IMG/VR virus record: IMGVR_UViG_3300012973_000875 | Length of the DNA: 64,000 bases | Direction: 5' to 3' (one strand) | Origin: an uncultured virus (IMG/VR IMGVR_UViG_3300012973_000875) | Taxonomy: Duplodnaviria; Heunggongvirae; Uroviricota; Caudoviricetes | In this document: positions 4,668 through 58,654 of the stretch, in pieces | How the letters are laid out: each line of letters opens with the position of its first letter | Position numbering within the stretch: position 1 is the stretch's first letter | Program-made: the position numbers and the translations under genes | Notes under the pieces: model-generated | Databases searched by the model: none | What the model saw: the letters and a program-made list of their open reading frames with translations, nothing else | What the model was told of the DNA's origin: nothing

Positions 4668-4671
4668 CGCC

Positions 4672-4700: not shown

Positions 4701-4706
4701 GCAACC

Positions 4707-4907: not shown

Positions 4908-4950
4908 GGAGCCGGCGGTGCGCCACAATCACCGCCGGCTCCGTTGTTTT
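4908..4950 (+). terminator. Putative intrinsic terminator
   Basis: 13 bp perfect stem ggagccggcggtg/caccgccggctcc followed by gttgtttt. Confidence 0.6.
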
Positions 4951-4975
4951 GAATGCTTCTGACCTGGAGTTTGCG

Positions 4976-5296: not shown

Positions 5297-5380
5297 GTCC
5301 ACGCGTCCCCGTCCCCGTGAACTTACCAGACACCCCGGGTTGCCCCCGGGGTGTCTTCGCATTGGTACGGAGGAGTTTCC

Positions 5381-5911
5381 ATGGCCACGCTCGTGATCAA
5401 GCCCGACCAGGAAGCCTGGATCGTCACGGGGACGACCTCCTCGGTCGATGGCCTGGACGCCATCATGCTCTTCCCGCTGACCCAGAAGGCGGCGAGAGCC
5501 CTGCTCGGCCGGCTCCAGGTCGTGCGGGACGATCCCGATCTTCAGCACGAGGCTCGCCTGAGCCCGGCGTTCTTCACGTTCGCCCGCAGCGGCGAGACGA
5601 ACGACGACGTGATGGTCTTCAATCTTCCCGAGGAGGTCGAGGACTGGTGCGACGACGCTCGCCACGAGACCGGCCGCAGCGTCGAGCCGATCACCTGGCT
5701 GGTCCCCGCCGGCCAGCTTGTCCCCGACGTGACCCTGGCCAACCTGTCGCTCGACCTGGAAGCCGTGCAGATCTGGGACGGCATGATCAGCCTGCGCGGT
5801 GACATCGGCGACAGTGGCGAGGACTGGATCGAATCCTGCCCCATCGACGTCTCGGTGATTCAGCAGATCGCCGACGGTCGGTTTGACAATACCCCCATCC
5901 CCACGTCGTGA
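5381..5911 (+). CDS. Hypothetical protein
   Basis: GGAGGAG RBS; coding-like composition. Confidence 0.75.
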   Translation: MATLVIKPDQEAWIVTGTTSSVDGLDAIMLFPLTQKAARALLGRLQVVRDDPDLQHEARLSPAFFTFARSGETNDDVMVFNLPEEVEDWCDDARHETGRSVEPITWLVPAGQLVPDVTLANLSLDLEAVQIWDGMISLRGDIGDSGEDWIESCPIDVSVIQQIADGRFDNTPIPTS

Positions 5912-33587: not shown

Positions 33588-33614
33588 TGGATGCCCGGCG
33601 ACACGGAGGTCGCG

Positions 33615-35351
33615 ATGCCCCTCAAGAAGCTCGGTCGGCTGGTCTTCAGTTCCACGATCAACCACACGCTGATCGCGACCCTGATCGGCACGGCCCTGCT
33701 CACGGGGATCCTGGCGTTCGTCGCCGCCTCGCACATCTCCTGGCGGTCGAGCCTGGAGCGGCAGCGGTCCTACGAGTCGTTGCTGTCGCTGGAGCGGCTC
33801 ACCTCGACGCTCCGCGACGCCGAGACGGGCCAGCGCGGCTACCTGCTCACCGGCAACGATGCCTACCTGGCCCCGTACCGTAGCGCCATGCGGCTGGCGG
33901 CCAACCGCCTGGCGCGGATCCGCCAGTTCGAGTTCCTCGCCGGCCCGCTCGTCGCCACCCTGGAGCAGCACACCGAGGACAAGCTCGGGGAACTCCAGCA
34001 GACGGTTGACCTCTACGCGGCCGGGCAGACCGCTGACGCCCTGGCCCTGGTGCGGTCCAACCGGGGCAAGCAGGCGATGGACGAGGTGCGGGCGACGATC
34101 ACCCGGCTCCAGGACCAGGAGAACGCCCGGCTGGCCTTCAGCGACGCCAACCTGCGGTACTTCGCGGCGCTGGCCGGCGGCATCGGCGCGGTCACGACTG
34201 CGACGTTCGTCGCCGGCCTGGTCTGGCTGACCCTGCGGAACCTGGCCGAGGAGCGGGCGCACGCCTTGACCAAGCAGGCGCAGATGCTCGCCGAGGAGAA
34301 GTTCGTCCGGGTCGTCGAACTGGCCCCCAACGCGGTCGTGCTCGCCGGCAAGGACGGGGTCATCAACTTCTGGAACCAGGCCGCCACCAAGATGTTCGGC
34401 GCCGACATGCTCGGCCACCCGCTCGTCGACCTGATGCCGACCCGCTATCACGACCGCCACCGGCACTGGTTCGGCCACGCCAACCAGGCCGGCGCGCTGC
34501 GGTCGCCGGGTCGCGAGTTCAAGCTCGAAGCCAAGCGGACCGACGGTGTCGAGTTCGACATCGAACTGGCCCTGGACCGGATCGAGGTCGGGCAGGAACC
34601 GCTCTATGTCGCGTTGATCCGCGACGTGACCGACCGCTACCGCGTGCTGCGGGAACTGGAGCGGTCCAACGAGGAACTCGACCAGTTCGCCTACGTCGCC
34701 AGCCACGACCTCCAGGAGCCGCTGCGGATGATCTGCACCTTCCTGGGGCGGCTGGGCGAGCGGCACGGTGAGCACCTCGACGACCAGGGACGGCGGTACA
34801 TCGAACTGGCCACCGAGGCGAGTAGCCGGATGCAGCGGCTGATCCGCGACCTGCTCGAATACGCCCGGGTCACGACCAAGGCCAAGGCCCTGGAGTGGGT
34901 CAACCTGCTGGAGGTCGTCAGCCTGGTCGTCGCGGACTTCCAGGACAAGATCGCCGAGGAGCGGGCCGACATCCGCGTCTCGGAGTTCCTCCCCAAGGTC
35001 ATGGCCGACCCGGTGCAGATCCGCCAGGTGTTCCAGAACCTGGTCGGCAACGCGCTGAAGTACCACCGGCCCGGCGTCCCGCCCACGATCCGGATCAACG
35101 TGGTCGCCGAGGCGACCTGCTGGCAACTCATGGTCGCCGACAACGGCATCGGCATCGACCCGGGCGACAACCGCAAGATCTTCACCCTCTTTTCCCGCCT
35201 CCATGCCCGCGACGAGTACGAGGGAACCGGCATCGGGCTCGCCATCTGCAAGAAGATTGTGGAACGGCACCAGGGCAAGATCTGGTTCGAGAAGGTCCCC
35301 AGTGGCGGCACCGCCTTCTACTTCACGCTCCCCCGTGATTCCAGGGGTTGA
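33615..35351 (+). CDS. Sensor histidine kinase (TM-CHASE3-TM-PAS-HisKA-HATPase)
   Basis: DAETGQRGYLLTG (CHASE3), PAS-like region, FAYVASHDLQEPLR (H box), NLVGNALKY, DNGIGI, GTGIGLAICKKIV. Confidence 0.95.
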   Translation: MPLKKLGRLVFSSTINHTLIATLIGTALLTGILAFVAASHISWRSSLERQRSYESLLSLERLTSTLRDAETGQRGYLLTGNDAYLAPYRSAMRLAANRLARIRQFEFLAGPLVATLEQHTEDKLGELQQTVDLYAAGQTADALALVRSNRGKQAMDEVRATITRLQDQENARLAFSDANLRYFAALAGGIGAVTTATFVAGLVWLTLRNLAEERAHALTKQAQMLAEEKFVRVVELAPNAVVLAGKDGVINFWNQAATKMFGADMLGHPLVDLMPTRYHDRHRHWFGHANQAGALRSPGREFKLEAKRTDGVEFDIELALDRIEVGQEPLYVALIRDVTDRYRVLRELERSNEELDQFAYVASHDLQEPLRMICTFLGRLGERHGEHLDDQGRRYIELATEASSRMQRLIRDLLEYARVTTKAKALEWVNLLEVVSLVVADFQDKIAEERADIRVSEFLPKVMADPVQIRQVFQNLVGNALKYHRPGVPPTIRINVVAEATCWQLMVADNGIGIDPGDNRKIFTLFSRLHARDEYEGTGIGLAICKKIVERHQGKIWFEKVPSGGTAFYFTLPRDSRG

Positions 35352-35353
35352 CG

Positions 35354-36496
35354 ATGCCCGAACCGCAGACCTCGATCCTGCTCGTCGAGGACAACGACGG
35401 CGACGCCGAACTCGTCAACGAGTTCATCGGCGATCTGGGGGCGACCCAGTTTGTCTTGACCCGGGCCAAGACCCTGGCCGAGGCGATCCGCGCCCGGCTC
35501 GGCACACCGTTCGACGTGATCCTCCTGGACCTGAACCTGCCCGACTCCAAGGGGCTCGACACCCTGGCCGCCTTCTGCCGGTCGACGGGGCTCTACCCAC
35601 TACCGCCGATCATCGTCCTGACCGGGCTGCACGACGAGGATACCGCCGACCAGGCGATGCAGTCGTGCGCCCACGACTACCTGGTCAAGTCCGAGGCCAA
35701 CGCCAAGTCGCTGCTGCGGGCCATCCGCTTCGCGATCCAGCGACAGGGCAAGGAGGCGCTCAGCAAGATCGTCGCCGACCAGCGGTCGCTGCTCCCCTTC
35801 GAGTTGGACCAGCCGCCGATGGTCGACGACGAGTCGGCGTCGATGACCGGCGAGCAGGCGACCAAGGTCATCGAGGAGACGTCGCAATCGATCGACGTGC
35901 TCCGCCGGGTCACCAAGACCGCGCTGGGGCAGGCCGAGACGGAGAGGCTGCCGACGGAGCGGTCGCCCCGCCAGTCCGACGTCGACATGGAGTTGCAACT
36001 CGGGCACATCAATGTCGGGCAGCAGGCCAGCGAGGTCGCGCTGTCGGGCATCGTCCATCTCATGACGTCGCACGCCCAGCGGCTCGATCAGATGCAGCAC
36101 GCACTGGATACCCTGTTGCGGCAGATGGCCGCGCAGGATCGGGAATGGTCCGCCATCCGGGTCGAGGTCGCCACCCTCCAGGGCAACGTGCGGGTGCTCA
36201 CCGTCCAGTTGATGCCGATGATCAAGCTGTCGCGTGGGGATGGCTCGGGGCTGCCGCTGGAGACGCGGATGGACCGGATGGAGCGCGATCTGGGGACGTT
36301 GAGCGGCGACTTCCCCACCCTCGATACGGGGCGGCAGCAAGTGCCTTTTGTCCGGCGAGGCGTTATCCTGGGGTTGCTTCTGGTCGGCTTCGGGGCGTTG
36401 TTGGCCTGGGCGGCCCTCCACTATCTCGAACTCCGCGACCACAGCGCCGGGAGCCCCCCTTATGTCGCACCCCTGGAGCCAGACGGATCTGGCTGA
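35354..36496 (+). CDS. Response regulator: receiver domain, coiled coil, C-terminal TM helix
   Basis: ILLVEDN, ILLDLNLPD, IIVLTG, DYLVK; heptad-rich middle; VILGLLLVGFGALLAWAAL. Confidence 0.9.
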   Translation: MPEPQTSILLVEDNDGDAELVNEFIGDLGATQFVLTRAKTLAEAIRARLGTPFDVILLDLNLPDSKGLDTLAAFCRSTGLYPLPPIIVLTGLHDEDTADQAMQSCAHDYLVKSEANAKSLLRAIRFAIQRQGKEALSKIVADQRSLLPFELDQPPMVDDESASMTGEQATKVIEETSQSIDVLRRVTKTALGQAETERLPTERSPRQSDVDMELQLGHINVGQQASEVALSGIVHLMTSHAQRLDQMQHALDTLLRQMAAQDREWSAIRVEVATLQGNVRVLTVQLMPMIKLSRGDGSGLPLETRMDRMERDLGTLSGDFPTLDTGRQQVPFVRRGVILGLLLVGFGALLAWAALHYLELRDHSAGSPPYVAPLEPDGSG

Positions 36497-39400
36497 GGCC
36501 GAGGACCGCCTGCACCGCATGGGACAGGCGTGGGGCTACATGACCAAGGCGGGCGGGACGCCCGTCGCGGCCCCCTCGCTCGCCGGGCGGCTGATCGCCA
36601 GCCGCAGCGGCTGGATGCTGCTGGAGGTCCCCAACGCGGTCGTGCGCGGCCTGTTCACGGCCCTGCACGAGCCGGGCATCGAACTGCCGCTCAAGGATGG
36701 CGTGCTCACGGCGCACATCAGCGTCATGACCGAGGACGAGGTGATCGCCCTGGGCGGCCCCCAGACGATCACCGAGCGCGGCCAGACGTTCCACTACCAA
36801 CTCGGGCCGCTGAAGTCGGTCGAGCCGTCAGGCTGGAAGGACGTCAGCCGCTGCTGGTTCGTCGAGATCCAGTCGCCTGAACTCAAACAACTCCGCAAGT
36901 CCTACGGCCTGACCCCGCTGCCCCGGGGCGACCACGAGTTCCACTGCACCGTGGCCGTCCGTCGCAAGCACGTGCTCAGGCCCGGCGAGATCCGAAAGGC
37001 CGCCCATGCTGACCGCATCCCCGGAACGCCGAGCCCGACGCCAAGCGACCCGGCATCCAGCGATCGACGCAGCCCTCAACTTCACCCGCCAGCGGCTGCG
37101 GGAGGAGAGCCTCGCCAGCCGGATCCTGCCGGCGATCCGGATCGAGATGGGCAACGAGTCCTGGAACACGACGATGCCGTGGGCCTCGGCACTGTGGATG
37201 ACCGGGCCTCGGCCCTCGGCGGCGATTCGGACGATCGCGGACGAGGCCGTGCGTACGATGGCGGAGGCCATGGGTCCCCCGCCGCCGTATCGCCTGGGCT
37301 CGCGGCTCTCCTCGGCGGCCGCGATGGCGGAGCCGGACAATCACCTCGGGATCGCGATCCTGCCGCGCGATCCGGAGCGGCGCCGGCGGATCCTGGATGC
37401 GACGTTCTGATCGCCAAGGTGGCGGCCGCCACCTCGCTGGGGGCCGAGGCCGAGACGGCACGGATCCACGCCAACCGGTTGCAGCCCCAGAATCAGAAGC
37501 CGCACCCATTCCGCGAGGCGGGCTGGACCCACCCCAATGGCCACCCCCGCTGCCTCCGCTGCGGGGGTGAGCCGCGTGGTGACGGGACGGGCCCGCCCTA
37601 CGACCTGTGCCAGGGTTACAACCCCGACCACGACAAGCCGGCGCGCGCCAAGGCCCAGGCCACCCGGGCCCGGCGGATCACCAAGCACGACAACCGGGTG
37701 GCCCGCGAGCACAATCCCAGGATCCGGGCGTTCGGGCGCAAGCACGGCCTCGACGTCTCGGACATCTTGCTGGCGATCAAGCAGGCCGCTTGCGAATCCA
37801 GCCCTGTCGACGAGCACGGCGATCCGTGCCCGGATGGCGAGTGCTGCCCGCATTGCCGCGCCCGCCTCGAACGAGAGCCCCATGACGGGACCTGCAATCG
37901 CTGCGGCAAGCGCTGGGGACCGCGACTGTATCGCGACAAGAACGCCACGCTGCTGACGATCGATGACCTGAACGAGGCCAGCCGCCTGCTGAGTGACGAC
38001 TCGGTCCTGGACGCGCTGACCCGCAGGAGCCTCGGCGGCGAGGCCATGCTCCAGCGGCAGGCCGAACGCGGCATCCTCCCGGTCCCGACCGTGCCGACGG
38101 CCCAGCCGGTCATGCCCGGCAGCGTCACTGACGACGCGATCGGCCTGGAGATGACCGACCCGCAGGACAACCTGCTCGGGTTCAATGACGACGCGATCGA
38201 GAAGGAGGGCGAGGCCAATCCGGTCCTGGAGCAACTCCGCAAGGCCAAGGCCGAGAGCGACCGCCGGAACTTCGCCGCCAAGCACGCTATCCTCCGGCCG
38301 CTGCTGGAGCAGTATCCCGGCGAGTTCGTCATCGACTCGCAGCAGCACCGGTTCGCTGGCCTGACCCACTCGCCGACCGGGTTCCGGATCCACATGCCCA
38401 GGACGGCCGTCCCGGGGACGATCAAGGCCGCCGCGCCGATCCCGCTGGCCGCCCGCATCGACGCGGTCATGCCCAGGCGTCGTAGGCGTCCCGTCGCGCT
38501 GCCGGCGGCCATGGCCCCGGTCCTGCCCGTCGACGACGAGGCGGAGTTGGCGGCCCAGATGCCGCTGGCCCTCCAGATGCTCGCCAGGCCGCGACGGGCA
38601 CGCCGCCGGCGTGCGGCCGTGTCGAAGCTCGCCGCCGCCAAGGAAGACCGCCACGGGGCCCTGGCGGCCCTCAAACCGGGTGCCCCGCTGGACTTCGTTG
38701 TCCAGCAGCATGACGCGGACCAGGCTGGCACCCACCACGACGTACGGATCGGCAATCCGGAACTTGGTATGTTCTCGTGGGCGGCCCCCAAGGGCCTGCC
38801 CAAGCCGGGCGAGAAGCGGCTGGCCGTGATGCAGCCGACTCACCCGCACAGCTACAACGGTTTTGAGGGAGCAATCCGTAGCGGCTACGGCAAAGGCCAG
38901 GTCCGGCAGCATCTTGCCGGCAAGGCCACCCCGTCCCGCGTCGAGCCCGGACGGCTCACGTTCGAGGCCGAGACCCCCGACGGGCCGCAGCGATTCGCCA
39001 TGCTGCGGCAGGAGAAGTGGGGCCCGGATAACTGGCTCATGCTCAATACCACGAAGGCGGCATCCGATGAGCGAGAACACAACAATTCCATTCGAGACCC
39101 TGCCGCGAGTGGAAACGGAGGCTTGAATGGCGAAACATCCGATCGACTTCACGCAGCAGGCCCAGAAAATCGCCCAGCAGCTTCTCGCGATGCCGGAGTC
39201 GCAGAAGCTGGCGGAGATCGCCGAGTTGCGGGCAAATTACCCGGTCATGGCCTCGCTGGTCTCCGACGAGTTCCGGCGGATCCGGAAGCTATTACAAGGG
39301 TGACCAAGACCGCCGCCATCTCGGTCGATGCCGCCATGCCCCTGGCCGGCGCCGCCGTGGGCGGACTGGGCGGGCTGGCCGTCAACAAACTGTTCGGATT

Positions 39401-41609
39401 CAAGCGGCCATGGACGGCTGCCGCGATCGGCGCCGGCCTGGGCGGGCTTCGCGGCGCCAACCTGGCCATGCGATCGCCCGTGGAGTCGCTCGACAGTCGC
39501 AGCCTCAGCCGGGAGATCGCGCCGTTCTATGCCAATGCCCCGGGCGGATACGCCGGCGCGGTCGGCCGCGCGATCGCGAACCGAAAACCGATCGACGGTA
39601 TGTTCCCGCTCCAATTCAATCGCGGCGATCTCGACCGGCAGGTCCCGATCATCCAGTATCGCGACGGCATCCCCGGGCAGCCGTATAGCCTGGCAGGCGC
39701 GACGATCGGCGGCGGTTCGCAGCCCGCGCGTGTCGAACTGGCCAAGGGCGGCACGCAGGACGCTGCCGATCTCACGCGGCGACATGAATTGTCGCACGCT
39801 GGGCTTGATATGAATCCGGCGAGCCGTACGGGCGAATTGCCGCAGCCGTCGGCGTCGCTTATCGGTGGCGCCCCGGCCGATGCGCATCGCGTATACGCCC
39901 AGTCCGCCAGCGAACTGATCCCACGGATTTCGGAGATTAAGCGGCAGTTCGTCGCAGCACATCCCGGCACCGACGTCGATTCCGAGGCCGTTGCCAACGA
40001 GGCCCTCGAATGGTACGGACGGCAAATGTCCGATCCGGCCTCGGCGGCGGGCCTCGGCGGCGAGAGCGCGATCAGCGACTGGCAAGCGCTGGAGAAGGCC
40101 AAACCCGGCTGGTTGCGATCGATGATCCTCAAGCTCATGCCGCAACTCGTCGACACTGCGAGGACCGGGACGGATAAGACCGCAGCCATGCTCGGAGATG
40201 TCGAACTCCAGCCACAACAGAAGCGTGTCGCCGACCAGGACAACGACCTGCTCGTCTACCACGGCCTGGGCTCGGGCAAGACGCTCGCCGCGATCGCCGC
40301 CGCCGAGAAGGGCGGCGGCCCCTATCTGGCCGTCACGCCTGCGGCGCTGCGGCCCAACTTCCAGAAGGAGCGGGAGAAGTGGACCGACATGCAGACGCCG
40401 GCCACGACGCTCTCCTACACCCAGGTTGCCGGCGGTCACATCCCCGACCACGCCTACGACACGTTCATCGCCGACGAGGCTCACCGGCTGCGGAACCCGG
40501 ACTCGCAGCAGAGCAAGAACGTCGCCGCGCTGGCCGCCCAGGCCCGGCGGCGGATCCTGCTCTCGGGCTCGCCGATCGTCAACGCCCCGAGTGACCTGGC
40601 GATGCCGATGGCGATGGTGACCGGGCGATCGATGACCCCCGATCAGTTCGATCAGCAATTCATCGGCAAGGAGTACGTCAACCCGGGGCTCTGGGCCCGG
40701 CTCTGGGGGGTCAAGCCGACCTCCCGGCCGACGATCAAGAACGAGGACGAACTGGAGGACCTCTGGCGGGGTCACGTCGACTACTATGCTCCGGACAAGC
40801 CGCTGGTCGACTCGCAGACCGAGCGGATCGAGACCGACCTGGGCCCCGACCAGCAGGACTTCTACAAGCTCATGTGGGGCAAGCTCCCCTGGATGACGCG
40901 GTGGAAGCTGTCGCGGAACTACCCGCTGTCGAAGACCGAGGTCAAGAACCTCTCCAGCTTCATGACCGGCCCGCGTCAGGCGGGGCTGTCGTTGCTGCCG
41001 TTCATGGCCGAGGGGTCCGACCCCCTGGAGGCGTTCAAGGGGTCGCCCAAGCTCCAGCGGGCGATGAGTGAACTCGACAAGGAGTTCCAGAACCCCCAGG
41101 CCAAGGCCCTCATCTTCTCGAACTTCATCGACGCCGGCCTGACGCCGTATGCCGCCGCCCTGGCCGCCAAGGGGATTCCCCACGGCGTCTTCAAGGGGGG
41201 CATCAGCGATGCCGAACGGACCCAGATGGTCAACGACTACAACTCCGGCAAGCTGCGGGCGCTGCTCCTGGGCCCCAGTGGTTCGGAGGGGATCTCGACC
41301 CGGCGCACGAGCCTGATCCAGCAACTCGACCCCCACTTCAATGAGGCCCGCGAGGCGCAGAACAAGGGGCGAGGCATCCGCCTGGACAGCCACACGGACC
41401 TGCCGCCCGAGTTACGCAACGTCCGGGTCCAGCGATTCATCTCGCGGATGCCCGAGGGCTTCCTGGAGAACCTCCTGGGCCGGAACAAGCCGAGTGCCGA
41501 CGAGGTGCTCGAACGGATGTCGGCCGACAAGGAGCGGCTCAACGATCAGTTCCGCCGGGTTTTGCAGCGGGTCGGCACGCCGTCGCGGGCCGCTGGCTGG
41601 TTCGGGTAA
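36462..41609 (+). CDS. Multi-domain putative polyprotein: 2H phosphoesterase, Zn fingers, LigD-type 3'-phosphoesterase, Gly-zipper/HExxH module, SNF2-like helicase
   Basis: AHISV...FHCTV; CxxC clusters; FVVQQH...HHDVR...SWAAPKG...KRLAV...FEG; HELSH; YHGLGSGKT, DEAH, SGSP, GRGIR; modules separated by K-x-[A/G]. Confidence 0.85.
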   Translation: MSHPWSQTDLAEAEDRLHRMGQAWGYMTKAGGTPVAAPSLAGRLIASRSGWMLLEVPNAVVRGLFTALHEPGIELPLKDGVLTAHISVMTEDEVIALGGPQTITERGQTFHYQLGPLKSVEPSGWKDVSRCWFVEIQSPELKQLRKSYGLTPLPRGDHEFHCTVAVRRKHVLRPGEIRKAAHADRIPGTPSPTPSDPASSDRRSPQLHPPAAAGGEPRQPDPAGDPDRDGQRVLEHDDAVGLGTVDDRASALGGDSDDRGRGRAYDGGGHGSPAAVSPGLAALLGGRDGGAGQSPRDRDPAARSGAAPADPGCDVLIAKVAAATSLGAEAETARIHANRLQPQNQKPHPFREAGWTHPNGHPRCLRCGGEPRGDGTGPPYDLCQGYNPDHDKPARAKAQATRARRITKHDNRVAREHNPRIRAFGRKHGLDVSDILLAIKQAACESSPVDEHGDPCPDGECCPHCRARLEREPHDGTCNRCGKRWGPRLYRDKNATLLTIDDLNEASRLLSDDSVLDALTRRSLGGEAMLQRQAERGILPVPTVPTAQPVMPGSVTDDAIGLEMTDPQDNLLGFNDDAIEKEGEANPVLEQLRKAKAESDRRNFAAKHAILRPLLEQYPGEFVIDSQQHRFAGLTHSPTGFRIHMPRTAVPGTIKAAAPIPLAARIDAVMPRRRRRPVALPAAMAPVLPVDDEAELAAQMPLALQMLARPRRARRRRAAVSKLAAAKEDRHGALAALKPGAPLDFVVQQHDADQAGTHHDVRIGNPELGMFSWAAPKGLPKPGEKRLAVMQPTHPHSYNGFEGAIRSGYGKGQVRQHLAGKATPSRVEPGRLTFEAETPDGPQRFAMLRQEKWGPDNWLMLNTTKAASDEREHNNSIRDPAASGNGGLNGETSDRLHAAGPENRPAASRDAGVAEAGGDRRVAGKLPGHGLAGLRRVPADPEAITRVTKTAAISVDAAMPLAGAAVGGLGGLAVNKLFGFKRPWTAAAIGAGLGGLRGANLAMRSPVESLDSRSLSREIAPFYANAPGGYAGAVGRAIANRKPIDGMFPLQFNRGDLDRQVPIIQYRDGIPGQPYSLAGATIGGGSQPARVELAKGGTQDAADLTRRHELSHAGLDMNPASRTGELPQPSASLIGGAPADAHRVYAQSASELIPRISEIKRQFVAAHPGTDVDSEAVANEALEWYGRQMSDPASAAGLGGESAISDWQALEKAKPGWLRSMILKLMPQLVDTARTGTDKTAAMLGDVELQPQQKRVADQDNDLLVYHGLGSGKTLAAIAAAEKGGGPYLAVTPAALRPNFQKEREKWTDMQTPATTLSYTQVAGGHIPDHAYDTFIADEAHRLRNPDSQQSKNVAALAAQARRRILLSGSPIVNAPSDLAMPMAMVTGRSMTPDQFDQQFIGKEYVNPGLWARLWGVKPTSRPTIKNEDELEDLWRGHVDYYAPDKPLVDSQTERIETDLGPDQQDFYKLMWGKLPWMTRWKLSRNYPLSKTEVKNLSSFMTGPRQAGLSLLPFMAEGSDPLEAFKGSPKLQRAMSELDKEFQNPQAKALIFSNFIDAGLTPYAAALAAKGIPHGVFKGGISDAERTQMVNDYNSGKLRALLLGPSGSEGISTRRTSLIQQLDPHFNEAREAQNKGRGIRLDSHTDLPPELRNVRVQRFISRMPEGFLENLLGRNKPSADEVLERMSADKERLNDQFRRVLQRVGTPSRAAGWFG
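37006..37410 (+). CDS. Nested +1-frame gene with MLTASPERR tag inside polyprotein spacer
   Basis: Starts right after the host KAA codons and stops 5 nt before the host KVA; host frame here is low-complexity. Confidence 0.7.
   Translation: MLTASPERRARRQATRHPAIDAALNFTRQRLREESLASRILPAIRIEMGNESWNTTMPWASALWMTGPRPSAAIRTIADEAVRTMAEAMGPPPPYRLGSRLSSAAAMAEPDNHLGIAILPRDPERRRRILDATF
39127..39303 (+). CDS. Nested +1-frame 58 aa helical protein inside polyprotein spacer
   Basis: GGAGG RBS; MAKHPIDFTQQAQKIAQQLLAMPESQKLAEIAELRANYPVMASLVSDEFRRIRKLLQG*; stop lies 2 nt before the host KTAA. Confidence 0.65.
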   Translation: MAKHPIDFTQQAQKIAQQLLAMPESQKLAEIAELRANYPVMASLVSDEFRRIRKLLQG

Positions 41610-41622
41610 TAAACGTTAATCG
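41605..41622. promoter_or_regulatory. AT-rich palindromic site, copy 5
   Basis: ggtaATAAACGTTAATcg, overlapping a stop codon. Confidence 0.65.
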
Positions 41623-41681
41623 CCGGCGACGCTGGCGATCGGCCCCCTGATGACCGCCAGGAATGGTGTTATGATGGCCCA

Positions 41682-42899
41682 ATGTCCTACCCCAGGTACG
41701 AGCCGTCTAGCCGCACGGAGGCTGTCGTGGACGACGTAGAGAACCTTCCGATCCTCGCCGCTCAGCGCGTCTGCGTGGATCGGGTCCTGCCCGATTCCTG
41801 GGAGAGCGCCGCCCAGAAGTGGGCCGCCGCCGAGAACCCCGAGAACACCGGCAGCGCGATCCCCATGCCCGCGTCGATGGCGGTCGTGCGGTCGCGGAAG
41901 TGGCAACCGGGACGGACCCTGCGGGTCAAGTTCATTGGCGGGGCGCCGGCTGTCCGCCAGAAGGTCTTCTTCTGGGCCAAGCACTACGAGCAGTTCGCCA
42001 ACATCAAGTTCGAGCAGGTCACCGACTCCGCCGACGCCGAGATTCGCATCGCCTTCGAGCCCACCGAGGGGTCGTGGTCGTACGTCGGCACCGACATCCT
42101 GACGGTCCCCAGGAACCTGCCGACGATGAACTTCGGCTGGCTGACCCCGACCAGCAGCGACCAGGACTACTCCTCGGTCGTGCTCCACGAGTTCGGCCAC
42201 GCCCTGGGCTGCATCCACGAGCACCAGAGCCCCGCCGGCGGCATCCCCTGGGACAAGGACGTTGTCTACCGCGACCTGTCCGGCCCGCCCAACCGCTGGT
42301 CGAAGGCGCAGATCGACGCCAACATGTTCACCCAGTACAACCAGAACCAGACCCAGTTCACCGATCTGGATCCGGCGTCGATCATGATGTACTCGTTCCC
42401 CTCGGCCTGGACCGGCGGCAAGCTGGCCACCCGCTGGAACACGGTGCTCAGCCCGGTCGACAAGTCGTACATCGCGGCGATGTACCCCCGCGAGAACGCT
42501 CCGGCCCCGGACCCCCAGCCGGTCGCACCGCCGTCTCCGCCCGCCCCCGATCCCTCGCCGCCGCCGGAGACCGGCACCGTCCCGGGCACCCGCGCCGAGG
42601 GGGTCCTGCGGATCGACGGCAACCCCCGCACCTGTCAGATCAACACCGGCGAGATCGCCCAGTTCACCTTCCAGGTCACGCGGCGGGCCCGCTACATGCT
42701 CGGCACCGGCGGCCAGCAGGACCTGCTCGCCGAGATCTACACCCAGGCCGGTCAGCGGGTCGCCCAGGACGACGACGGCGGTGTCGGCGAAAACGCGATG
42801 GTCGTCGCGGCCCTCGACCCAGGTAACTACGTCGCGGCGATCACCTGCAAGAAGAAGGTGAGTCGTGGGCTCTACTCCATCGCGATCCGCAAGCGCTAG
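41682..42899 (+). CDS. Astacin-like (M12A) zinc metalloprotease with Pro linker and C-terminal PPC-like domain
   Basis: HEFGHALGCIHEHQ, SIMMY Met-turn, GSWSYVG; DDDGGVGENA....LDPGNY. Confidence 0.88.
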   Translation: MSYPRYEPSSRTEAVVDDVENLPILAAQRVCVDRVLPDSWESAAQKWAAAENPENTGSAIPMPASMAVVRSRKWQPGRTLRVKFIGGAPAVRQKVFFWAKHYEQFANIKFEQVTDSADAEIRIAFEPTEGSWSYVGTDILTVPRNLPTMNFGWLTPTSSDQDYSSVVLHEFGHALGCIHEHQSPAGGIPWDKDVVYRDLSGPPNRWSKAQIDANMFTQYNQNQTQFTDLDPASIMMYSFPSAWTGGKLATRWNTVLSPVDKSYIAAMYPRENAPAPDPQPVAPPSPPAPDPSPPPETGTVPGTRAEGVLRIDGNPRTCQINTGEIAQFTFQVTRRARYMLGTGGQQDLLAEIYTQAGQRVAQDDDGGVGENAMVVAALDPGNYVAAITCKKKVSRGLYSIAIRKR

Positions 42900-50489: not shown

Positions 50490-50696
50490 ATGGGCGTCGA
50501 ACCACGCTACCTGGGCAAGACCACCGAGGACCTTCAGCAGGACCAGGATCACGCCGCCATCGAGGCGGCCGGGGTCCAACTCCGCCAGGCGAAGGCCCGC
50601 GAGCAGAAAACGCAGAATCTGGCGCGACGGATGGGCCAGACACCCCCGTCGCAACGAGGGAAATCGACCCATGCCAAGCGTGCTGGACAGTTTTGA
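50490..50696 (+). CDS. Possible small protein overlapping the RNAP start
   Basis: 68 aa filling the intergenic gap; weak RBS. Confidence 0.45.
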   Translation: MGVEPRYLGKTTEDLQQDQDHAAIEAAGVQLRQAKAREQKTQNLARRMGQTPPSQRGKSTHAKRAGQF

Positions 50697-53600
50697 CCCG
50701 ACGCAGCCCCTCCGCCCGCAGGCGACGCTGCCTGCGGGTGCTCCCCCGGCACTGGGCCTGACCCCGGTCACCCCGCTGGCCCCCCGGGCAGTCGCCACTC
50801 CGGTCCCGACCCCGCCGGCCGTGGACATGCGCGACTTCGGCGACTCCGCCGCGATCCGCCGGCAGATCTTCGCCAACGTCCGGGCCAAGGCCCAGGGGAT
50901 CGAGCCGATCACCAACGCCCGCCACACGCTCACCCTGCACGATGTCGACTACACCGGGCAGGAGGAATACTCGATCCGGGAGCGGAAGCGGGCGATCCTT
51001 CGCGGGGAGACGCTGGGTCGCCGGCTCCAGGGGACCTGGCTGCTGACGGACAACGCGACCGGGGCGACGATCGATCGCAAGCGGTCGACGATCGCCACCG
51101 TCCCCTACATGACCGACAGCGGCACGTTCATCAAGGGGGGCAACGAGTACACCCTGGCCCACCAGAGCCGGCTGCGGGCCGGGGTCTTCAGCCGCCGCCA
51201 GGACAACGGCGATTTGGAAGCCCACGTCAACGTCATGCCGGGCAAGGGGATCTCCAGCCGCGTCTACATGGAGCCGTCGACCGGGTTGTTCCGGCTCAAG
51301 GTCGCGCAGGCCAAGCTGCCGCTGCTGCCGGTGCTGCGGGCGATGGGGGTCACCGACGACCAACTCCGCAAGGCGTGGGGTAACGAGCTTGTCAGCCCCA
51401 ACATGCTCAAGGACGACCCCTCGGCGATCGACAAGCTCTACAAGCGGCTCTACCGCAGCGGCACCGAGGCGAACTTCGCCAACCGGGCCGCCGCCGTCGC
51501 CGACGCCTTCGCCAAGATGGAACTCGACCCGGAGGTCACCAAGCGGACATTAGGCGAGCCGTTCAAGGGGGTCGACGCCGCCGCCCTGCTGGCGACGACC
51601 AAGAAGCTGATCGCGATCAATCGCGGCGAGGCCGAGCCCGACGACCGCGACCACCTGGCCTACATGACCGTCCACGGCCCCGAGGACCTGCTCGCCGAGC
51701 GGCTGGGTAAGGACCGCCGGCTGCTGACGCGGATGCTCTGGAAGGCCGGGTCCAAGGGCGGCCTGCAAGCGATGAAGACCGACCTGTTCACCAAGTCGAT
51801 CGAGGCGGCCATCATGGGCTCGGGCCTCGGGCAACCGGTCGAGTCGATCAACCCGGCGCAGATCTTCGAGCAGCAGGGGCGCGTCAGCCGGCTGGGTGAG
51901 GGCGGCATCCCGTCGCTCGACTCGGTCCCGACCGAGGCTCGCAACGTCCAGCCGTCGCACTTCGGCTTCATCGATCCGCTGGTGACCCCCGAGAGCTTGA
52001 AGGTCGGCGTCGACAGCCGCGTCGTCCGGTCGGCCCGCAAGGGGGCCGACGGCCGGCTCTACTCGCCCTTCCGCGACATCAAGACCGGCCAGACCGTCTA
52101 CAAGAGCCCGCAGGAGATGGCCGACGCCACGATCGCCTTCCCCGGCGAACTGCGGAAGAACACGCCGATGGTCGCGGCCATGGTCGCCGGCCGCACCAAG
52201 TTCGTCCCCCGCGAGAAGATCGATTATGAGCTTCCGCAGATGGAGGACGCCTTCTCGCACATCACGAACCTGGTGCCGATGAAGTCGGCCGTCAAGGGGC
52301 AACGCGCGGTCATGGCCGGCCGCATGATCACCCAGGCGCTGCCGGTCTCCGAGCCCGAGAGCCCGCTGGTGCAGTCGGGGGTGCCCGGGTCGCAGGACGA
52401 TAGCTACGAGAACCAGTACGGCCGCTACATGGGGGCCGTCCGCAGCGACACGGCTGGCACGGTCGTGCAGGTCGACGGCGACTCGATCAAGGTCCGGGGG
52501 GCCGACGGCCGGGTCCGCGAGACCCAGCTTTACAACAATTTTCCGTACAACCGCAAAACTTTTGTCCACCAGTCGGCCGCCGTGAAGGTCGGCGACCCGG
52601 TCCAGCCCGGCCAACTCCTGGCCCGGTCGAACTACACCGACGCGCAGGGGGTCACCGCGCTGGGCAAGAATGCCCGGGTCGCCTACATCCCGTTCCGGGG
52701 GATGAACTTCGAGGATGCGATCGTCGTCAGTGCCTCGTTCGCCAAGCGGATGCGCAGCGAGCACATGTACCAGCACGGGATGGATCGCGACGATGACGTC
52801 AAGACGGGCAAGAAGGACTTCGTCTCCAGCTTCGCCACCAAGTTCCCCCGGGCGATCCTCGACACGATCGACGACGACGGGGTCGTCAAGCCGGGCACCA
52901 CGGTCGAGCACGGCCACCCGCTGGTGCTCGCCGTCAAGAAGCGGGACCGGACCCACGGGGCGATCCACCGAGGTCGCGACGCCTCGTTCGCCGACAAGAG
53001 TGAACTCTGGTCCCACCACTCCCCCGGGGTCGTCACCGACGTCGAAAAGACGAGCAAGGGGATCGTCGTCTCGGTCAAAAGCCACAACGAGATGGAGGTC
53101 GGGGACAAACTGAGTGGGCGCTACGGCGACAAGGGGGTCATCGCCGGGATCATTCCCGACGACGAAGTCCCGCACGATGCGCAGGGCCGCCCCTACGAGG
53201 TGCTCCTGAATCCGCTCGGGGTGATCACCCGCACCAACCCCAGTCAGATGGTCGAGGCGTCGCTGGGCAAGATCGCCGAGCGGACCGGCAAGGCGTACCG
53301 CGTCCAGGACTTCCAGGACCAGGACCTGACGCAGTACGCGATCGACGAACTGACCAAGCACCAGATGCAGGACCAGGAGAACATCTACGACCCCTCGACC
53401 GGCCGCGTCATCCCCAAGATCTTCACCGGCAACCGCTTCTTTATGAAGCTGCACCACACGGCCGAGTCGAAAGGGCAAGGACGCGGCACCGCCGGCTACA
53501 CGTCCGAGGGGCGACCGTCGAAGGGGGGCGAGACCGGCTCGAAGCGGATCTCGCTCATGGACATCAACGCGCTCTTGTCGCACGGGGCGACCGAGGTCCT

Positions 53601-55155
53601 CCGCGACGCCTCGGTCGTGCGGGGCCAGGAGCACCAGGACCTCTGGGCGCAGTTCATGTCGGGGCACAAGATGCCCACCCCCAAGGTGCCGTTCGTCCAC
53701 GAGAAGTTCGTCAACCAGTTGAAGGCCGCCGGGATCAACGTCATCCGCGAGGGGACCCGCCACCAGGTGATGGCCCTGACCGACGCCGACGTCCGCGAGA
53801 TGTCGGGCGACCGCGAGGTCACCTCGGGCGACACGGTCGACTGGAAGGGGGGCCTGAAGCCGATCCGGGGCGGCCTGTTCGACGAGCACCTGACGGGCGG
53901 TCACAACGGCAACCGCTGGGCGCACATCAAGCTCCACGAGCCGATGCCCAACCCCGTCATGGAGGAGCCGGTCCGCAAGATCCTGGGCCTGACCGAGAAG
54001 GAATACCGCGAGGTCCTGGGGGGCGACCGCCGGATCGCCGGCGCGACCGGCCCGGCGGCGATCGGCAAGGCGCTGGCGGCGATCGACGTCCCCAAGATGA
54101 TGGAGCAGGCCCGTGCCGAGATCGCCGGCAGCAAGCGGGGGGCCCGCGACCAGGCGATCCGCAAGCTCCGCTACCTGAAGGCGGCCGATCGGCTCAAGAT
54201 CCACCCCAAGGACTGGATGCTGTCGCAGGTGCCGGTCCTGCCGCCGATCTTCCGCCCGGTCTCGGTCATGGCCGGCTCGAAGATGCCGATGGTGGCCGAC
54301 CCCAACTACCTCTACAAGGAACTGCTGGAGGCCAACGACAACCTCAAGACGATGTCCGGGGCGGTCGACGACACCAAGGACGAGCGGCTGGCCCTCTACG
54401 ACACGTTCAAGGCGGTCACCGGCCTGGGCGACCCGCTCCACCCCAAGAACCAGGAGAAGCAGGTCAAGGGGATCCTCAAGCACGTCTTTGGCAACTCGCC
54501 CAAGGTGGGCGTCGTCCAGCGGAAACTGCTGGGAGCCTCGACCGACCTGGTCGGCCGGGCGGTGATCACCCCCAACCCCGACCTCGACATGGACACCGTC
54601 GGCGTCCCCGAGACCCGGGCCTGGGAGGTCTACAAGCCGTTCCTGATCCGCCGCCTGGTCCGCCGTGGCGTGCCCCGCCAGCAGGCCGCGCAGTTGGTCC
54701 ACGACAAGCACCAGCTTGCCAAGGACGCGCTGCTCCAGGAGATGGAGGCCCGCCCGGTGATCATCAACCGGGCCCCGGTGCTCCACCGCTACGGGATCAT
54801 GGCCTTCCGCCCCAAGCTCGTGAAGGGGGACACCCTCCAAGTCAGCCCGCTGATCGTTGGCGGGTTCAACGCCGACTTCGACGGCGACGCCATGCAGTAC
54901 CACGTCCCGGCCTCCGACGAGGCGGTCACCGACGCCATGGAGAAGATGCTGCCGTCGCGTAATCTGCTGGCCGCCAGCAACTTCAAGGTCCACCAACTCC
55001 CCAGCAAGGAATACGGCGGCGGCCTTTACGCGGCCTCCACGTTCCGTGATGATAAGCGGCAGGTCATGCGGTTTAGGACGAAACGCGACGCCATTCTGGC
55101 ACGCCAGCAGGGACGGATCGACGTGGACCAGCCGGTCGAGATTCTGGAGGACTGA
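50671..55155 (+). CDS. rpoBC: Phage multisubunit RNA polymerase, fused beta + N-terminal beta' (catalytic)
   Basis: beta motifs VPYMTDSGTFI, LGEGGI, HFGFIDPLVTPES, GMNFEDAIVVS, GDKLSGRYGDKG, NPLGV, MKLHH; beta' motifs GGLFD, VPVLPPIFRP, NRAPVLH, NADFDGD (54868-54888). Confidence 0.95.
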   Translation: MPSVLDSFDPTQPLRPQATLPAGAPPALGLTPVTPLAPRAVATPVPTPPAVDMRDFGDSAAIRRQIFANVRAKAQGIEPITNARHTLTLHDVDYTGQEEYSIRERKRAILRGETLGRRLQGTWLLTDNATGATIDRKRSTIATVPYMTDSGTFIKGGNEYTLAHQSRLRAGVFSRRQDNGDLEAHVNVMPGKGISSRVYMEPSTGLFRLKVAQAKLPLLPVLRAMGVTDDQLRKAWGNELVSPNMLKDDPSAIDKLYKRLYRSGTEANFANRAAAVADAFAKMELDPEVTKRTLGEPFKGVDAAALLATTKKLIAINRGEAEPDDRDHLAYMTVHGPEDLLAERLGKDRRLLTRMLWKAGSKGGLQAMKTDLFTKSIEAAIMGSGLGQPVESINPAQIFEQQGRVSRLGEGGIPSLDSVPTEARNVQPSHFGFIDPLVTPESLKVGVDSRVVRSARKGADGRLYSPFRDIKTGQTVYKSPQEMADATIAFPGELRKNTPMVAAMVAGRTKFVPREKIDYELPQMEDAFSHITNLVPMKSAVKGQRAVMAGRMITQALPVSEPESPLVQSGVPGSQDDSYENQYGRYMGAVRSDTAGTVVQVDGDSIKVRGADGRVRETQLYNNFPYNRKTFVHQSAAVKVGDPVQPGQLLARSNYTDAQGVTALGKNARVAYIPFRGMNFEDAIVVSASFAKRMRSEHMYQHGMDRDDDVKTGKKDFVSSFATKFPRAILDTIDDDGVVKPGTTVEHGHPLVLAVKKRDRTHGAIHRGRDASFADKSELWSHHSPGVVTDVEKTSKGIVVSVKSHNEMEVGDKLSGRYGDKGVIAGIIPDDEVPHDAQGRPYEVLLNPLGVITRTNPSQMVEASLGKIAERTGKAYRVQDFQDQDLTQYAIDELTKHQMQDQENIYDPSTGRVIPKIFTGNRFFMKLHHTAESKGQGRGTAGYTSEGRPSKGGETGSKRISLMDINALLSHGATEVLRDASVVRGQEHQDLWAQFMSGHKMPTPKVPFVHEKFVNQLKAAGINVIREGTRHQVMALTDADVREMSGDREVTSGDTVDWKGGLKPIRGGLFDEHLTGGHNGNRWAHIKLHEPMPNPVMEEPVRKILGLTEKEYREVLGGDRRIAGATGPAAIGKALAAIDVPKMMEQARAEIAGSKRGARDQAIRKLRYLKAADRLKIHPKDWMLSQVPVLPPIFRPVSVMAGSKMPMVADPNYLYKELLEANDNLKTMSGAVDDTKDERLALYDTFKAVTGLGDPLHPKNQEKQVKGILKHVFGNSPKVGVVQRKLLGASTDLVGRAVITPNPDLDMDTVGVPETRAWEVYKPFLIRRLVRRGVPRQQAAQLVHDKHQLAKDALLQEMEARPVIINRAPVLHRYGIMAFRPKLVKGDTLQVSPLIVGGFNADFDGDAMQYHVPASDEAVTDAMEKMLPSRNLLAASNFKVHQLPSKEYGGGLYAASTFRDDKRQVMRFRTKRDAILARQQGRIDVDQPVEILED

Positions 55156-56707: not shown

Positions 56708-58654
56708 ATGCCACTCAAGACCACCGTCGGGCAGTTGCTGATCAACGAGGCGCTCCCGCCGGAGATGCGGGACTACAACCGCACGCTCGATAAGAAGGGG
56801 ATCGCCAAGCTCTTCCAGGAGATCGCCGAGAAGCGGCCGGACCTCTACAAGGACGTCGCCCAGAAGCTCTCCGACGTCGGCCGCGACGTCGCCTACACGA
56901 CCGGCGGCTTCAGCTTCGGGCTGCGGGACATGCTGCCGAGCAAGGTCGCGCAGGTCGCCCGCCAGCAGATCGAGTCCGAGGTTCGGTCGATCCAGGCCAA
57001 CCCCCGGCTTACCGACGACCAGAAGGAGGAGGCGATCATCCGCGCGGTGGGCCGCCACCAGCAGACACTCGAAGGCCAGATCTTCGCCGAGGCCAAGGCG
57101 AGCAAGAACCCGCTGGCCGGGCAGATCATGTCGGGGGCACGCGGCAGCCCCATGAACCTCAAGTCGCTGCTGGGGGCCGACCTGCTCTACGTCGACCACC
57201 ACGCCCGCGAGATCCCGATCCCGGTCCTGAACCCGTACCCGCGCGGCCTCTCGCCGGTGGAATACTGGGCCGGGGCGTTCGGGGCCCGCAAGGGGGTCGC
57301 CGACACCAAGTTCGCCACCCAGGAGGCGGGCTATTTCGCCAAGCAGTTGAACCAGATCGACCACCGGCTCGTCGTCACCCAGCAGGATGACGACGAGGAC
57401 GACGACGCCAACGGCGCGATTCGCGGCCTGCCGGTCGATACCGATGACGGCGACTCGGCCGGGGCCCTGCTGGCGCAGCCGGTGGGCACCTACAAGCGCA
57501 ACACCGTGCTCACCCCGCGCATCCTCAAGGACCTCCAGAACCAGGGGATCAAGCGGATCGTGGTCCGCTCGCCGATGATCGGCGGGCCGGCACAGGGGGG
57601 TGTCTTCGCCCGCGACGTCGGGGTGCGGGAACGGGGCGGCATGGCCCCGCTGGGGGACCAGGTCGGCCTGGCCGCCGCGCAGGCCCTCTCCGAGAAGCTC
57701 ACCCAGGGGCAGCTAAGCTCGAAGCACTCCGGCGGCGTCGCCGGGGCCGAGCAGGCGGTCACCGGCTTCAAGTACATCAACCAGTTGATCCAGGTCCCCA
57801 AGACCTTCAAGGGGGGTGCCGCGCACGCCCAGGTCGACGGCATCGTCAACAACGTCACCGACGCCCCGCAGGGGGGCAAGTACATCTTCGTCGGCGGCGA
57901 GCAGCACTACGTCCCGCACGGCGTCGACATCAAGGTCAAGCCGGGCGATGCGATCGAGGCGGGGGACGTCCTGTCCGCCGGGATCCCCAATCCGGCCGAG
58001 ATCGTCAAGCACAAGGGGATCGGCGAGGGGCGGCGGTACTTCATGAACACGTTCCGCAAGGCGTACTCCGACTCGGGGATGGGGGCCGACCGGCGGAACA
58101 TCGAACTGCTGTCGCGCGGTCTCATCGACCACGTCAACGTCACCGACGAGTTCGGCGACTTCGTCCCCGACGACGTGACCTCGTATTCGACGATCGAGCG
58201 GAACTGGCAACCACGCGACGGCACACGGGCGATGAACACGACCTCGGCGGCGGGCAAGTACCTGGAACGGCCGATCCTCCATTACTCGATTGGCACCAAG
58301 ATCAGACCGAGTATCATAAAAGAGCTTGGTGAATTCGGGGTCAGCAACGTCGAGGTCCATGACGATCCGCCCCCCTTCGAGCCCGTCATGATCCGAGGGG
58401 CCTCGAATCTCCAACACGACCCCGACTTCATCACCCGCCACCTCGGATCCGGCCTCCAGAAGGCCACGCTCGGTGCGGTCCACCTGGGCGGCACGAGTGA
58501 TGCAAGCGGAACGAGCTACGTTCCGGCCAAAGTCTGGAATCCGACCGAGTTCGGACGGCAGGGTCTGGTCCAGGGCTGGAAGCCCAAGACCCCGTCGGTG
58601 CTGTCGACGCCTCCGACCCGAGGGCCGTCAGACAATGTCCTCTCACCGCTTTAA
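56708..58654 (+). CDS. rpoC: Phage multisubunit RNA polymerase, C-terminal part of beta'
   Basis: TTVGQ, SGARGS, GLSPVEYW...GARKGVADT..T.EAGY (bridge helix), AAQALSEKLTQ.....HSGG (trigger loop), RNIELL. Confidence 0.93.
   Translation: MPLKTTVGQLLINEALPPEMRDYNRTLDKKGIAKLFQEIAEKRPDLYKDVAQKLSDVGRDVAYTTGGFSFGLRDMLPSKVAQVARQQIESEVRSIQANPRLTDDQKEEAIIRAVGRHQQTLEGQIFAEAKASKNPLAGQIMSGARGSPMNLKSLLGADLLYVDHHAREIPIPVLNPYPRGLSPVEYWAGAFGARKGVADTKFATQEAGYFAKQLNQIDHRLVVTQQDDDEDDDANGAIRGLPVDTDDGDSAGALLAQPVGTYKRNTVLTPRILKDLQNQGIKRIVVRSPMIGGPAQGGVFARDVGVRERGGMAPLGDQVGLAAAQALSEKLTQGQLSSKHSGGVAGAEQAVTGFKYINQLIQVPKTFKGGAAHAQVDGIVNNVTDAPQGGKYIFVGGEQHYVPHGVDIKVKPGDAIEAGDVLSAGIPNPAEIVKHKGIGEGRRYFMNTFRKAYSDSGMGADRRNIELLSRGLIDHVNVTDEFGDFVPDDVTSYSTIERNWQPRDGTRAMNTTSAAGKYLERPILHYSIGTKIRPSIIKELGEFGVSNVEVHDDPPPFEPVMIRGASNLQHDPDFITRHLGSGLQKATLGAVHLGGTSDASGTSYVPAKVWNPTEFGRQGLVQGWKPKTPSVLSTPPTRGPSDNVLSPL

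Follow-up and report, generated by a model that had tools for sequence, protein, structure and literature searches.

A 64,000-nucleotide (nt) stretch of DNA from an uncultured virus (IMG/VR record IMGVR_UViG_3300012973_000875), here called the window, carries a very long gene for a phage polyvalent protein, and inside this gene lie two stretches that look like coding sequences of foreign derivation, written in the +1 frame. The host gene occupies 36462..41609 (+). The public gene call places its ATG at 36462 and gives a product of 1715 amino acids (aa); the frame is already open from 36348, and the complete open reading frame (ORF; 36348-41609, +) holds 1753 stop-free codons. Nested within it are a 134-aa gene at 37006..37410 (+) and a 58-aa gene at 39127..39303 (+), which we call lodgers. 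Labels beginning with P denote proteins (P0003 is the host protein, P0002 the 134-aa nested product), and those beginning with L denote loci of relatives.

Scanned as a whole against Pfam, the host protein contains 2H-SAK (aa 117-209), the 3′-phosphoesterase LigD_N (786-862), SNF2-rel_dom (1343-1427) and Helicase_C (1575-1679), each exceeding its curated cut-off, and its PHROG match is a DNA helicase (E 2.3e-34). The host can be classed as a polyvalent protein as defined by Iyer et al. 2017: it combines multiple unrelated enzymatic modules and comes from a mobile element.

The first lodger sits at the first module junction. The 2H-SAK phosphoesterase module (36462..37004, +), delimited by Pfam and by alignment with eight relatives at 51-62% identity, ends in a K-A-A junction (AAG GCC GCC, 36996..37004, +). 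The ATG of P0002 at 37006 lies one base past these codons, with the sequence AAGG, a weak possible ribosome-binding site, 8 nt before it. The TGA of P0002 (37408-37410) lies two codons 5′ of a K-V-A-A junction (AAG GTG GCG GCC, 37416..37427, +), which opens an HPNGHPRC zinc-ribbon module common to P0004 and P0005. A ribosome in the host frame would read 137 codons through this lodger (37005..37415, +), giving ...EIRKAA/HADRIPGTPSP...GCDVLIA/KVAAATS, where the slashes mark the junctions. The residues R, G, P, D and A make up 70% of this stretch, compared to 43% of the remaining protein. An earlier reading of the sequence without database searches (the sequence-only reading) had described the nested ORF, its K-A-A and K-V-A flanks and the junk-like host frame, and all of these are present as described. 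It had also seen no convincing start or ribosome-binding site for the downstream host domains. There is indeed no Shine-Dalgarno site, but a GTG at 37419, 8 nt past the nested TGA, is a possible re-initiation codon.

The second lodger follows the LigD phosphoesterase module, which closes with a K-A-A-S junction at 39054..39065 (+). A short +1 ORF of 19 aa (39067..39126, +) comes first, and its TGA abuts the ATG of the 58-aa gene (TGAATG). A GGAGG Shine-Dalgarno-like site (39117..39121, +) stands 5 nt before that ATG at 39127. Past the end of the lodger, a K-T-A-A junction (39306..39317, +) opens a glycine-rich/HExxH module. The LigD module of the window has no ligase domain, and relatives have a DNA-ligase domain at the position of the second lodger. 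AlphaFold2, run on the single sequence, predicts a three-helix bundle for the 58-aa product (predicted local distance difference test, pLDDT, 91.4; predicted template modelling score, pTM, 0.73). The 58-aa ORF belongs to no PHROG (E <= 0.001) or NCBIfam family and has no relative in the viral contigs or in 132 local loci (tblastn, E <= 0.01). BLASTP gave no alignment of it with the nested ORF of L030 described below, and a fold search of the model against the PDB and BFVD returned nothing at E <= 0.001.

A coding signal that changes frame

The length of a nested ORF is not beyond chance in this gene. Three other +1 ATG-ORFs of 139-161 aa occur in it (37537-37956, 39328-39813 and 40198-40620), with scores in their own frame of -0.53 to -1.04 bits per codon under a codon model fitted to 34 further genes of the window. 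Under the same model the first lodger (37006-37410) scores +0.21 in the +1 frame and -0.41 in the host frame, and the second (39127-39303) scores +0.29 and -1.04. In frame 0 the host modules reach +0.23 to +0.60, and in either lodger stretch all three antisense frames stayed at or below 0.

The GC content of the codon positions tells the same story, as it inverts in 36978-37427 and 39048-39317: GC at host position 3 falls from ~0.9 to 0.60-0.70, while position 1 climbs to 0.82-0.93. When the entire gene was scanned in sliding steps, frame 0 failed to be the best frame only at the two lodgers and in one marginal scan window in which all frames were negative. The coding signal thus switches from the host frame to +1 solely in 37006-37410 and 39127-39303, as the sequence-only reading had expected for the first of them.

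Nested genes in relatives of the host protein

A search with a 2H-SAK profile brought in 51 metagenome loci, together with 80 of 112 viral loci. In the 98 unique loci with a complete 2H-SAK end, the frame runs on for at least 150 codons in 68, stops within 20 codons in 10, stops at 21-149 codons in 7 and is cut by the contig end in 13. All same-strand ATG-ORFs of at least 70 aa inside 104 unique host ORFs were collected and scanned against the PHROGs. This census gave 50 ORFs, 46 in +1 and 4 in +2. Five of them, all in +1, match phrog_3377, an 'HNH endonuclease', at E values from 1e-48 to 1e-63; the other 45 were unmatched. A tblastn search added three nested copies, one in L021 and two in L001, the closest relative to the C-terminal half of the window's host protein. 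The HNH family is therefore represented by eight nested genes on seven contigs, 8/8 in +1, and by non-nested copies in L022 and L010. Neither P0002 nor the 58-aa ORF matches phrog_3377.

The borders between modules are where nested genes sit. They lie past 2H-SAK in L002, L005 and L017, in the window and in L053 (a gene we call L053n), and past a module ending in ...FKxWL in L009, L021 and L053. In L001 the first nested gene comes after the ligase domain and the second before the SNF2 module. HNH-family genes in particular follow 2H-SAK in nested form in L002, L005 and L017 and in non-nested form in L022, and three more come after the ...FKxWL module. Such recurrence at a few conserved sites would be expected of homing endonucleases.

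Several nested genes have AAGGAG, GGAG or GGAGG 5-8 nt upstream of their start; examples of good ribosome-binding sites are AAGGAG-N7-ATG in L009 and AAAGGAG-N6-ATG in L053n. The start layout of the L002 gene, AAGGCGGCC-A-ATG, is the same as that of P0002. At the other end, the nested stop falls 0-3 codons before the next K-x-A for both lodgers of the window, for L002, L009 and L017, and for the first gene of L001.

Further ORFs and stretches of related appearance were seen in this material. Directly past 2H-SAK in L030 (905-1453; equivalent to L032:1856-2254), K-A-P plus one nt and an ATG lead into a 182-codon +1 ORF with a hydrophobic middle segment and no family match. Within the DNA-ligase domain of L002 (6619-7156) there is a junk-like loop rich in G, P and T, where GC shifts to host position 1 and a 151-codon +1 ORF (MPHDYNQEEEV...) is found, again with no family match. 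P0004 and P0006 have a long version of this loop and P0007 a short one, and the L002 ORF may be a further lodger, here inside a domain. The database proteins P0004, P0005 and P0006 contain long R/G/P/D-rich stretches past K-A-A or K-x-A-A, such as ~110 residues after VAKAA in P0004 and the stretch between EKAAM and TKSAAA in P0006, and these look like further read-through lodgers. At L001:3224-4045, the last ~15 codons of the nested gene overlap the true start of the host SNF2 module (host ...VEMQPYQRRVAGRV; window VELQPQQKRVA), and both frames are meaningful there.

Stop codons and the choice of frame

The number of host-frame stops in each nested gene was compared with the number after shuffling its synonymous codons. 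The eight nested HNH-family genes contain no host-frame stop, against an expectation of 3.5-8.4; seven of them have P(0) <= 0.001 and the eighth has 0.013. The third frame of these genes contains about as many stops as expected. The purge extends to the nested ORFs L053n and L030n (P 0.0056 and 0.0050, respectively). Genes that are not nested do not have it: the corresponding frame of L022 has 10 stops with 13 expected, and the free-standing homologues of LucasX, phiAH14a and Moonbeam have 14, 17 and 32.

The purge can be seen directly at wobble positions. In 12 nested genes pooled, 498 codons precede AA, AG or GA, and none of them ends in T; 83.6 would be expected from the frequency of third-position T elsewhere (16.8%). 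In the non-nested gene of L022, 10 of 61 such codons end in T. These counts indicate that the open host frame through the nested genes of relatives is under selection at silent sites. Such selection would be expected only where ribosomes pass through the lodger in the host frame.

The code table suggests why the frame is +1. With the lodger in this frame, the first base of any host-frame stop is a T at a wobble position of the lodger, and an NNT codon always has NNC as a synonym. Each such stop would be removable by a T-to-C change that leaves the lodger protein intact. The other arrangement would lack a comparable cost-free way out: where ATG precedes an A, for instance, TGA would be unavoidable. 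The rule fits all eight HNH-family genes and the four other nested ORFs examined.

Relationship of P0002 to a capsid-like family

Weak pairwise matches of P0002 to the +1 ORF of L053 and to a free-standing ORF of L096 were used to build a profile, which retrieved 64 database proteins at E <= 0.01. Common to these is the motif A-[IV]-D-A-V-N-D-F-T-R-x-K-M-R-E-D-G-F-Y-R-R-I-M-P-P. Full-length members of the family (~310 aa) occur at 17 viral loci, several of them on contigs that also carry 2H-SAK genes. Atlas features group the family with HK97-type major capsid proteins (0.96-0.98; YonB / Phage_capsid_4), and NCBIfam gives an HK97-fold capsid match that is sub-threshold.

A hidden Markov model (HMM) of 15 full-length capsid-like proteins, with P0002 left out, was searched against 986 six-frame pieces of the window. 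Its single significant match was the +1 piece 36913-37407 (E 1.2e-5), where HMM positions 25-55 of 308 align with P0002 residues 17-47. With seven family members as tblastn queries, only 37033-37239 matched at E <= 0.004; matches in the rest of the window had E >= 0.059, and no full-length capsid-like copy was found in the window. By these comparisons P0002 shares an N-terminal motif and little else with the capsid-like family, and is not a capsid protein. For P0002 as a whole, no full-length relative was found.

The +1 ORF of L053 (L053n, 4401-4775) starts where the 2H-SAK module ends, at the same junction as P0002. It is 48-56% identical to capsid N-termini over ~90 aa and matches the HMM at E 2.4e-20.

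Short ORFs with pieces of the capsid N-terminal motif adjoin 2H-SAK polyvalent genes in L096 (2248-2733), L015 (1156-1779), L006 (1-336) and L008 (1282-1503). In L015 the motif is C-terminal in a 208-codon ORF with a GC content at third codon positions (GC3) of 0.98. A +1 ORF nested past 2H-SAK in L062 (4515-5351) weakly matches the capsid C-terminus (E 0.0018), and L148 (8992-9195) holds a second, divergent copy of the capsid N-terminus, 37% identical to L053n over 84 aa, ~4 kb downstream of the capsid-like gene. The recurrence of motif ORFs beside 2H-SAK genes may reflect a functional link between mimics of the capsid arm and packaged polyproteins. The idea that HNH genes imported the flanks of capsid genes into the junction was dropped, as all 17 capsid loci are free of HNH homologues within 5 kb.

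K-x-A junctions

The motif K-x-A-[AS] occurs seven times in the host protein of the window, with 1.56 expected (P 0.0015; K-A-A-H at 36996 is not counted), and 163 times in 59 relatives of at least 400 aa, with 48.3 expected. This is a 3-4 fold enrichment, and K-x-A borders both lodgers of the window on both sides. Stand-alone 2H-SAK genes terminate 2-6 codons past the K. The same tripeptide, as K-x-A-[ILVM]-D, is found near residue 16-26 in 15/15 unique capsid-like proteins (L134-L150; genes at ~4920-5850 of each locus). K-x-A might be a shared maturation-protease site that also serves to excise the junk linker, although we lean against this idea.

Genomic context

The + strand carries all 53 ORFs of the window that are supported by GC3. 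PHROG matches in the window include a virion structural protein and subunits of a phage RNA polymerase, and the source DNA looks like part of a large uncultured phage. The IMG/VR viral contigs that carry relatives are as long as 235 kb. The genome contigs contain no close relative of the whole host protein, and a DNA search of phage records gave no match. Further along the host translation, a HELSH (HExxH) motif at 39783..39797 (+) is a candidate active site of a zincin peptidase; the Pfam scan of the whole host protein found no peptidase family around it at E <= 0.01.

Large genes at 50671-55152 and 56708-58651 match a PHROG RNA polymerase beta subunit (E 9e-32) and phrog_25354, and the phage seems to encode its own RNA polymerase of the multisubunit type. 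The two genes directly 5′ of the polyprotein gene, at 33591-36493, match phrog_5982 and phrog_20458, whose profiles span 830-1030 positions, and one matching PHROG is annotated as a kinase (phrog_10912). The pair covers successive parts of the profiles and resembles a second large multi-module protein split in two.

Discussion

We consider it reasonably likely that 37006-37410 is coding sequence of foreign origin, lodged in +1 where the first two modules of a polyvalent-protein gene meet, and that 39127-39303 is a second such lodger. In relatives, the nested HNH-family genes and their purged host frames indicate that out-of-frame lodging is recurrent and under selection. The two lodgers of the window are probably members of the same phenomenon, and may still be expressed and useful. 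The sequence-only reading had proposed that a gene can be tolerated out of frame at a polyprotein junction. Support for this proposal comes mainly from the relatives, that is, from the eight HNH-family genes and their stop-free host frames, and the purge in the window itself falls short of it.

Several results weigh against this interpretation of the window. The host frame over the first lodger should contain ~1.9 stops, and their absence is not significant (P(0) = 0.09). The earlier caution that a shifted frame is naturally poor in stops in GC-rich DNA was therefore sound, as a stop-free host frame would arise by chance in ~9% of cases. The codon set of the second lodger is incapable of making host-frame stops, which leaves the test uninformative there, and the wobble-T test has expectations of only 1.6 and 0.7 in the two lodgers. 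The 19-aa ORF at 39067-39126 has no coding signal in the codon model. The homology of P0002 amounts to 31 residues by HMM. A word-indexed search found no full-length relative at E <= 0.01 among 97 candidates of near-equal length, and the viral contigs and genome contigs contain no match. No Pfam, PHROG (E <= 0.001) or NCBIfam family includes P0002, and the Atlas gave no usable match (recognition value 1923, below the benchmark of 2300). Among 1.84 billion representatives, phmmer returned only three matches, and these were set aside: P0012 and P0014 are repeat proteins matching in 13 and 6 weak stretches, and are spurious, and the third, P0013, likewise matches in 6 stretches. The AlphaFold2 model of P0002 is helical and of low confidence (pLDDT 69.5, pTM 0.25), and its ribosome-binding site is weak. 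Beyond the window, the second K-x-A is missing for L005 and for both nested genes of L053. The name 'HNH endonuclease' comes from PHROG and GenBank annotation; Pfam and NCBIfam gave helix-turn-helix matches only, and a PDB sequence search with the L002 protein gave 0 matches. The short homology and low model confidence of P0002 would fit a decaying fragment equally well as a live gene. The 58-aa lodger is the more convincing of the two as a live gene; P0002 may be live or a relic.

The most serious competitor, which we regard as unlikely but credible, is that P0002 is such a relic: what remains, in decay, of a capsid-like gene, or of some larger mobile insertion, that once landed at the junction. 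Its product would be unmade or useless, and only the stop-free host frame would still be selected. Just 31 residues match the capsid family, at ~46% identity, and true capsid proteins are highly similar over the same stretch. The weakness of the ribosome-binding site, the low AlphaFold2 confidence and the poor Atlas recognition would all follow, and the codon score of +0.21 is below that of most modules. On the other hand, the codon-position periodicity persists (GC 0.82-0.93 at the +1 wobble) despite deep divergence of the amino acid sequence, which a long period of neutral decay would not be expected to leave. The ORF is whole, with its ATG exactly past K-A-A and its stop immediately ahead of the next K-x-A, a homologous +1 ORF is found at the same site in L053, and small ORFs bearing the motif recur beside 2H-SAK genes (L096, L015, L006).

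It is improbable that the modules are separate cistrons, with the downstream ones made mainly by re-initiation (as at GTG 37419), frame-0 read-through incidental and the 'polyprotein' in fact an operon without stops. Frame 0 is stop-free, so ribosomes from upstream must continue, and the purge of 3.5-8.4 expected stops in relatives would be pointless if read-through were irrelevant. Start codons do lie near the nested stops in the window, Met is found in frame after K-x-A-A both at 40176-40190 (DKTAAM) and in P0006 (EKAAM), and 2H-SAK is a stand-alone gene in 10/98 unique loci; but the GTG at 37419 has no Shine-Dalgarno site, and L009 and L017 have no start codon right past the nested stop.

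Removal or recoding of the lodger is still less plausible. Homing endonuclease genes usually reside within introns or inteins, and the insertion of an endonuclease gene in T4 is linked to a 50-nt translational bypass (PMC5009743). An intron, an intein, ribosome hopping or a programmed +1 frameshift joining the lodger to 2H-SAK at K-A-A could be imagined here as well, and the C-terminal position of the capsid motif in the larger ORF of L015 is what a frameshift fusion to 2H-SAK would look like. However, Rfam at E <= 1 finds no intron in window 36300-41700 or in L002 900-2800; it gave nothing in the latter, and in the host gene of the window one sub-threshold match to a minus-strand small RNA, elsewhere in the gene. 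No intein/Hint family is present in the host protein (Pfam, E <= 0.01), and the host-frame stretch has no coding signal. The host frame of an intron would carry stops rather than be purged of them. Compared by eye, the start contexts of nine nested genes share no slippery motif, and each gene has its own ATG.

Least probable of all is an artefact: the ORF could have arisen by chance in a disordered linker of high GC content, or two assembly indels that compensate each other could hide an in-frame domain. Long +1 ORFs are common in the host gene (the three others of 139-161 aa), but the +1 coding signal is limited to 37006-37410 and 39127-39303, the capsid-family HMM match is specific to the +1 frame, P0002 has its own ATG and TGA, and the same anatomy, with unmistakable genes at E 1e-48 to 1e-63, is seen on at least eight independently assembled contigs.

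If foreign genes are lodged out of frame as we propose, they would probably be translated from their own ATGs, using the AAGG 8 nt upstream of the first and the GGAGG 5 nt upstream of the second. Ribosomes coming from the polyprotein start could not stop at a lodger. They would read a meaningless linker of 80-137 residues and then the next enzyme module. There are two possible reasons why such an insertion would be tolerated. First, the lodger lies exactly between modules. Second, host-frame stops can be avoided by silent T-to-C changes at the wobble positions of the lodger. The junk linker may then be cut out at the flanking K-x-A sites, as the sequence-only reading had proposed. As for P0002, it is perhaps a mimic of the capsid N-terminal arm, or else a relic.

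It is tempting to extend this scheme to a general landing platform, in which homing-endonuclease genes and their cargo or relics, such as mimics of the capsid arm, enter the junctions of polyvalent genes in +1, the host frame loses its stops by silent T-to-C changes, and a maturation protease excises the resulting junk linker at K-x-A. We regard this extension as doubtful. If true, it would give a selfish gene a further way to live within a gene, beside introns, inteins and intergenic sites, and it would provide a route for polyproteins to gain modules.

The relatives indicate that a selfish gene can occupy coding sequence without an intron or intein, and that +1 is cost-free to the lodger. 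The genetic code supplies a simple rule (only +1, and no wobble T before AA, AG or GA) that could be used to find hidden genes in the large ORFs of phages. Gene callers report only the giant ORF, and lodgers are therefore invisible in protein databases. This accounts for the orphan-like appearance of P0002. A large group of uncultured big phages may have its maturation-protease sites marked by the K-x-A junction motif, and lodgers show how polyproteins might tolerate, and perhaps recruit, foreign sequence.

In T4, internal proteins are directed to the prohead, and the prohead protease trims them at a short motif that the capsid protein has as well. The presence of K-x-A both at the polyprotein junctions and in the capsid-like proteins is a possible parallel, which we offer as a lead only. 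Polyvalent proteins themselves are found in phages and conjugative elements, and autoproteolytic release of their modules by a zincin-like peptidase has been proposed (Iyer, Burroughs, Anand, de Souza and Aravind 2017, PMC5512222, main text). The host protein of the window resembles them in joining a 2H phosphoesterase, a LigD phosphoesterase, an HExxH motif and an SNF2 helicase in one polypeptide. The main text of that paper contains neither the word 'homing' nor the word 'linker', and describes neither the K-x-A junction motif nor out-of-frame nested genes. In open-access papers and preprints we found no account of an endonuclease gene that lies out of frame within a read-through ORF.

Free-standing homing endonucleases offer a closer comparison, as in them too a selfish gene lands in a useful gene beside a conserved target and the host gene still works. 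In phage Aeh1, mobE is reportedly such a free-standing gene, splitting nrdA. In T4, genes 39 and 60 represent a gene split by an endonuclease gene, with bypass (PMC5009743). The host gene is cut in two in such cases, whereas the host ORF of the window is unbroken, and ribosomes would traverse the invader in a different frame. Endonucleases borne by introns and inteins are likewise invaders that sit inside a gene without destroying its product. The difference is that tolerance in the window would come from translation through the invader, possibly combined with proteolysis, and no splicing element was found.

Finally, same-strand overlapping genes of viruses arise by overprinting, in which a new frame originates within an older gene. 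Like them, the lodgers have two frames on one piece of DNA, the nested frame being +1. In polyvalent genes, however, the old gene would be the lodger, and the meaningless host frame would be constrained solely to lack stops.

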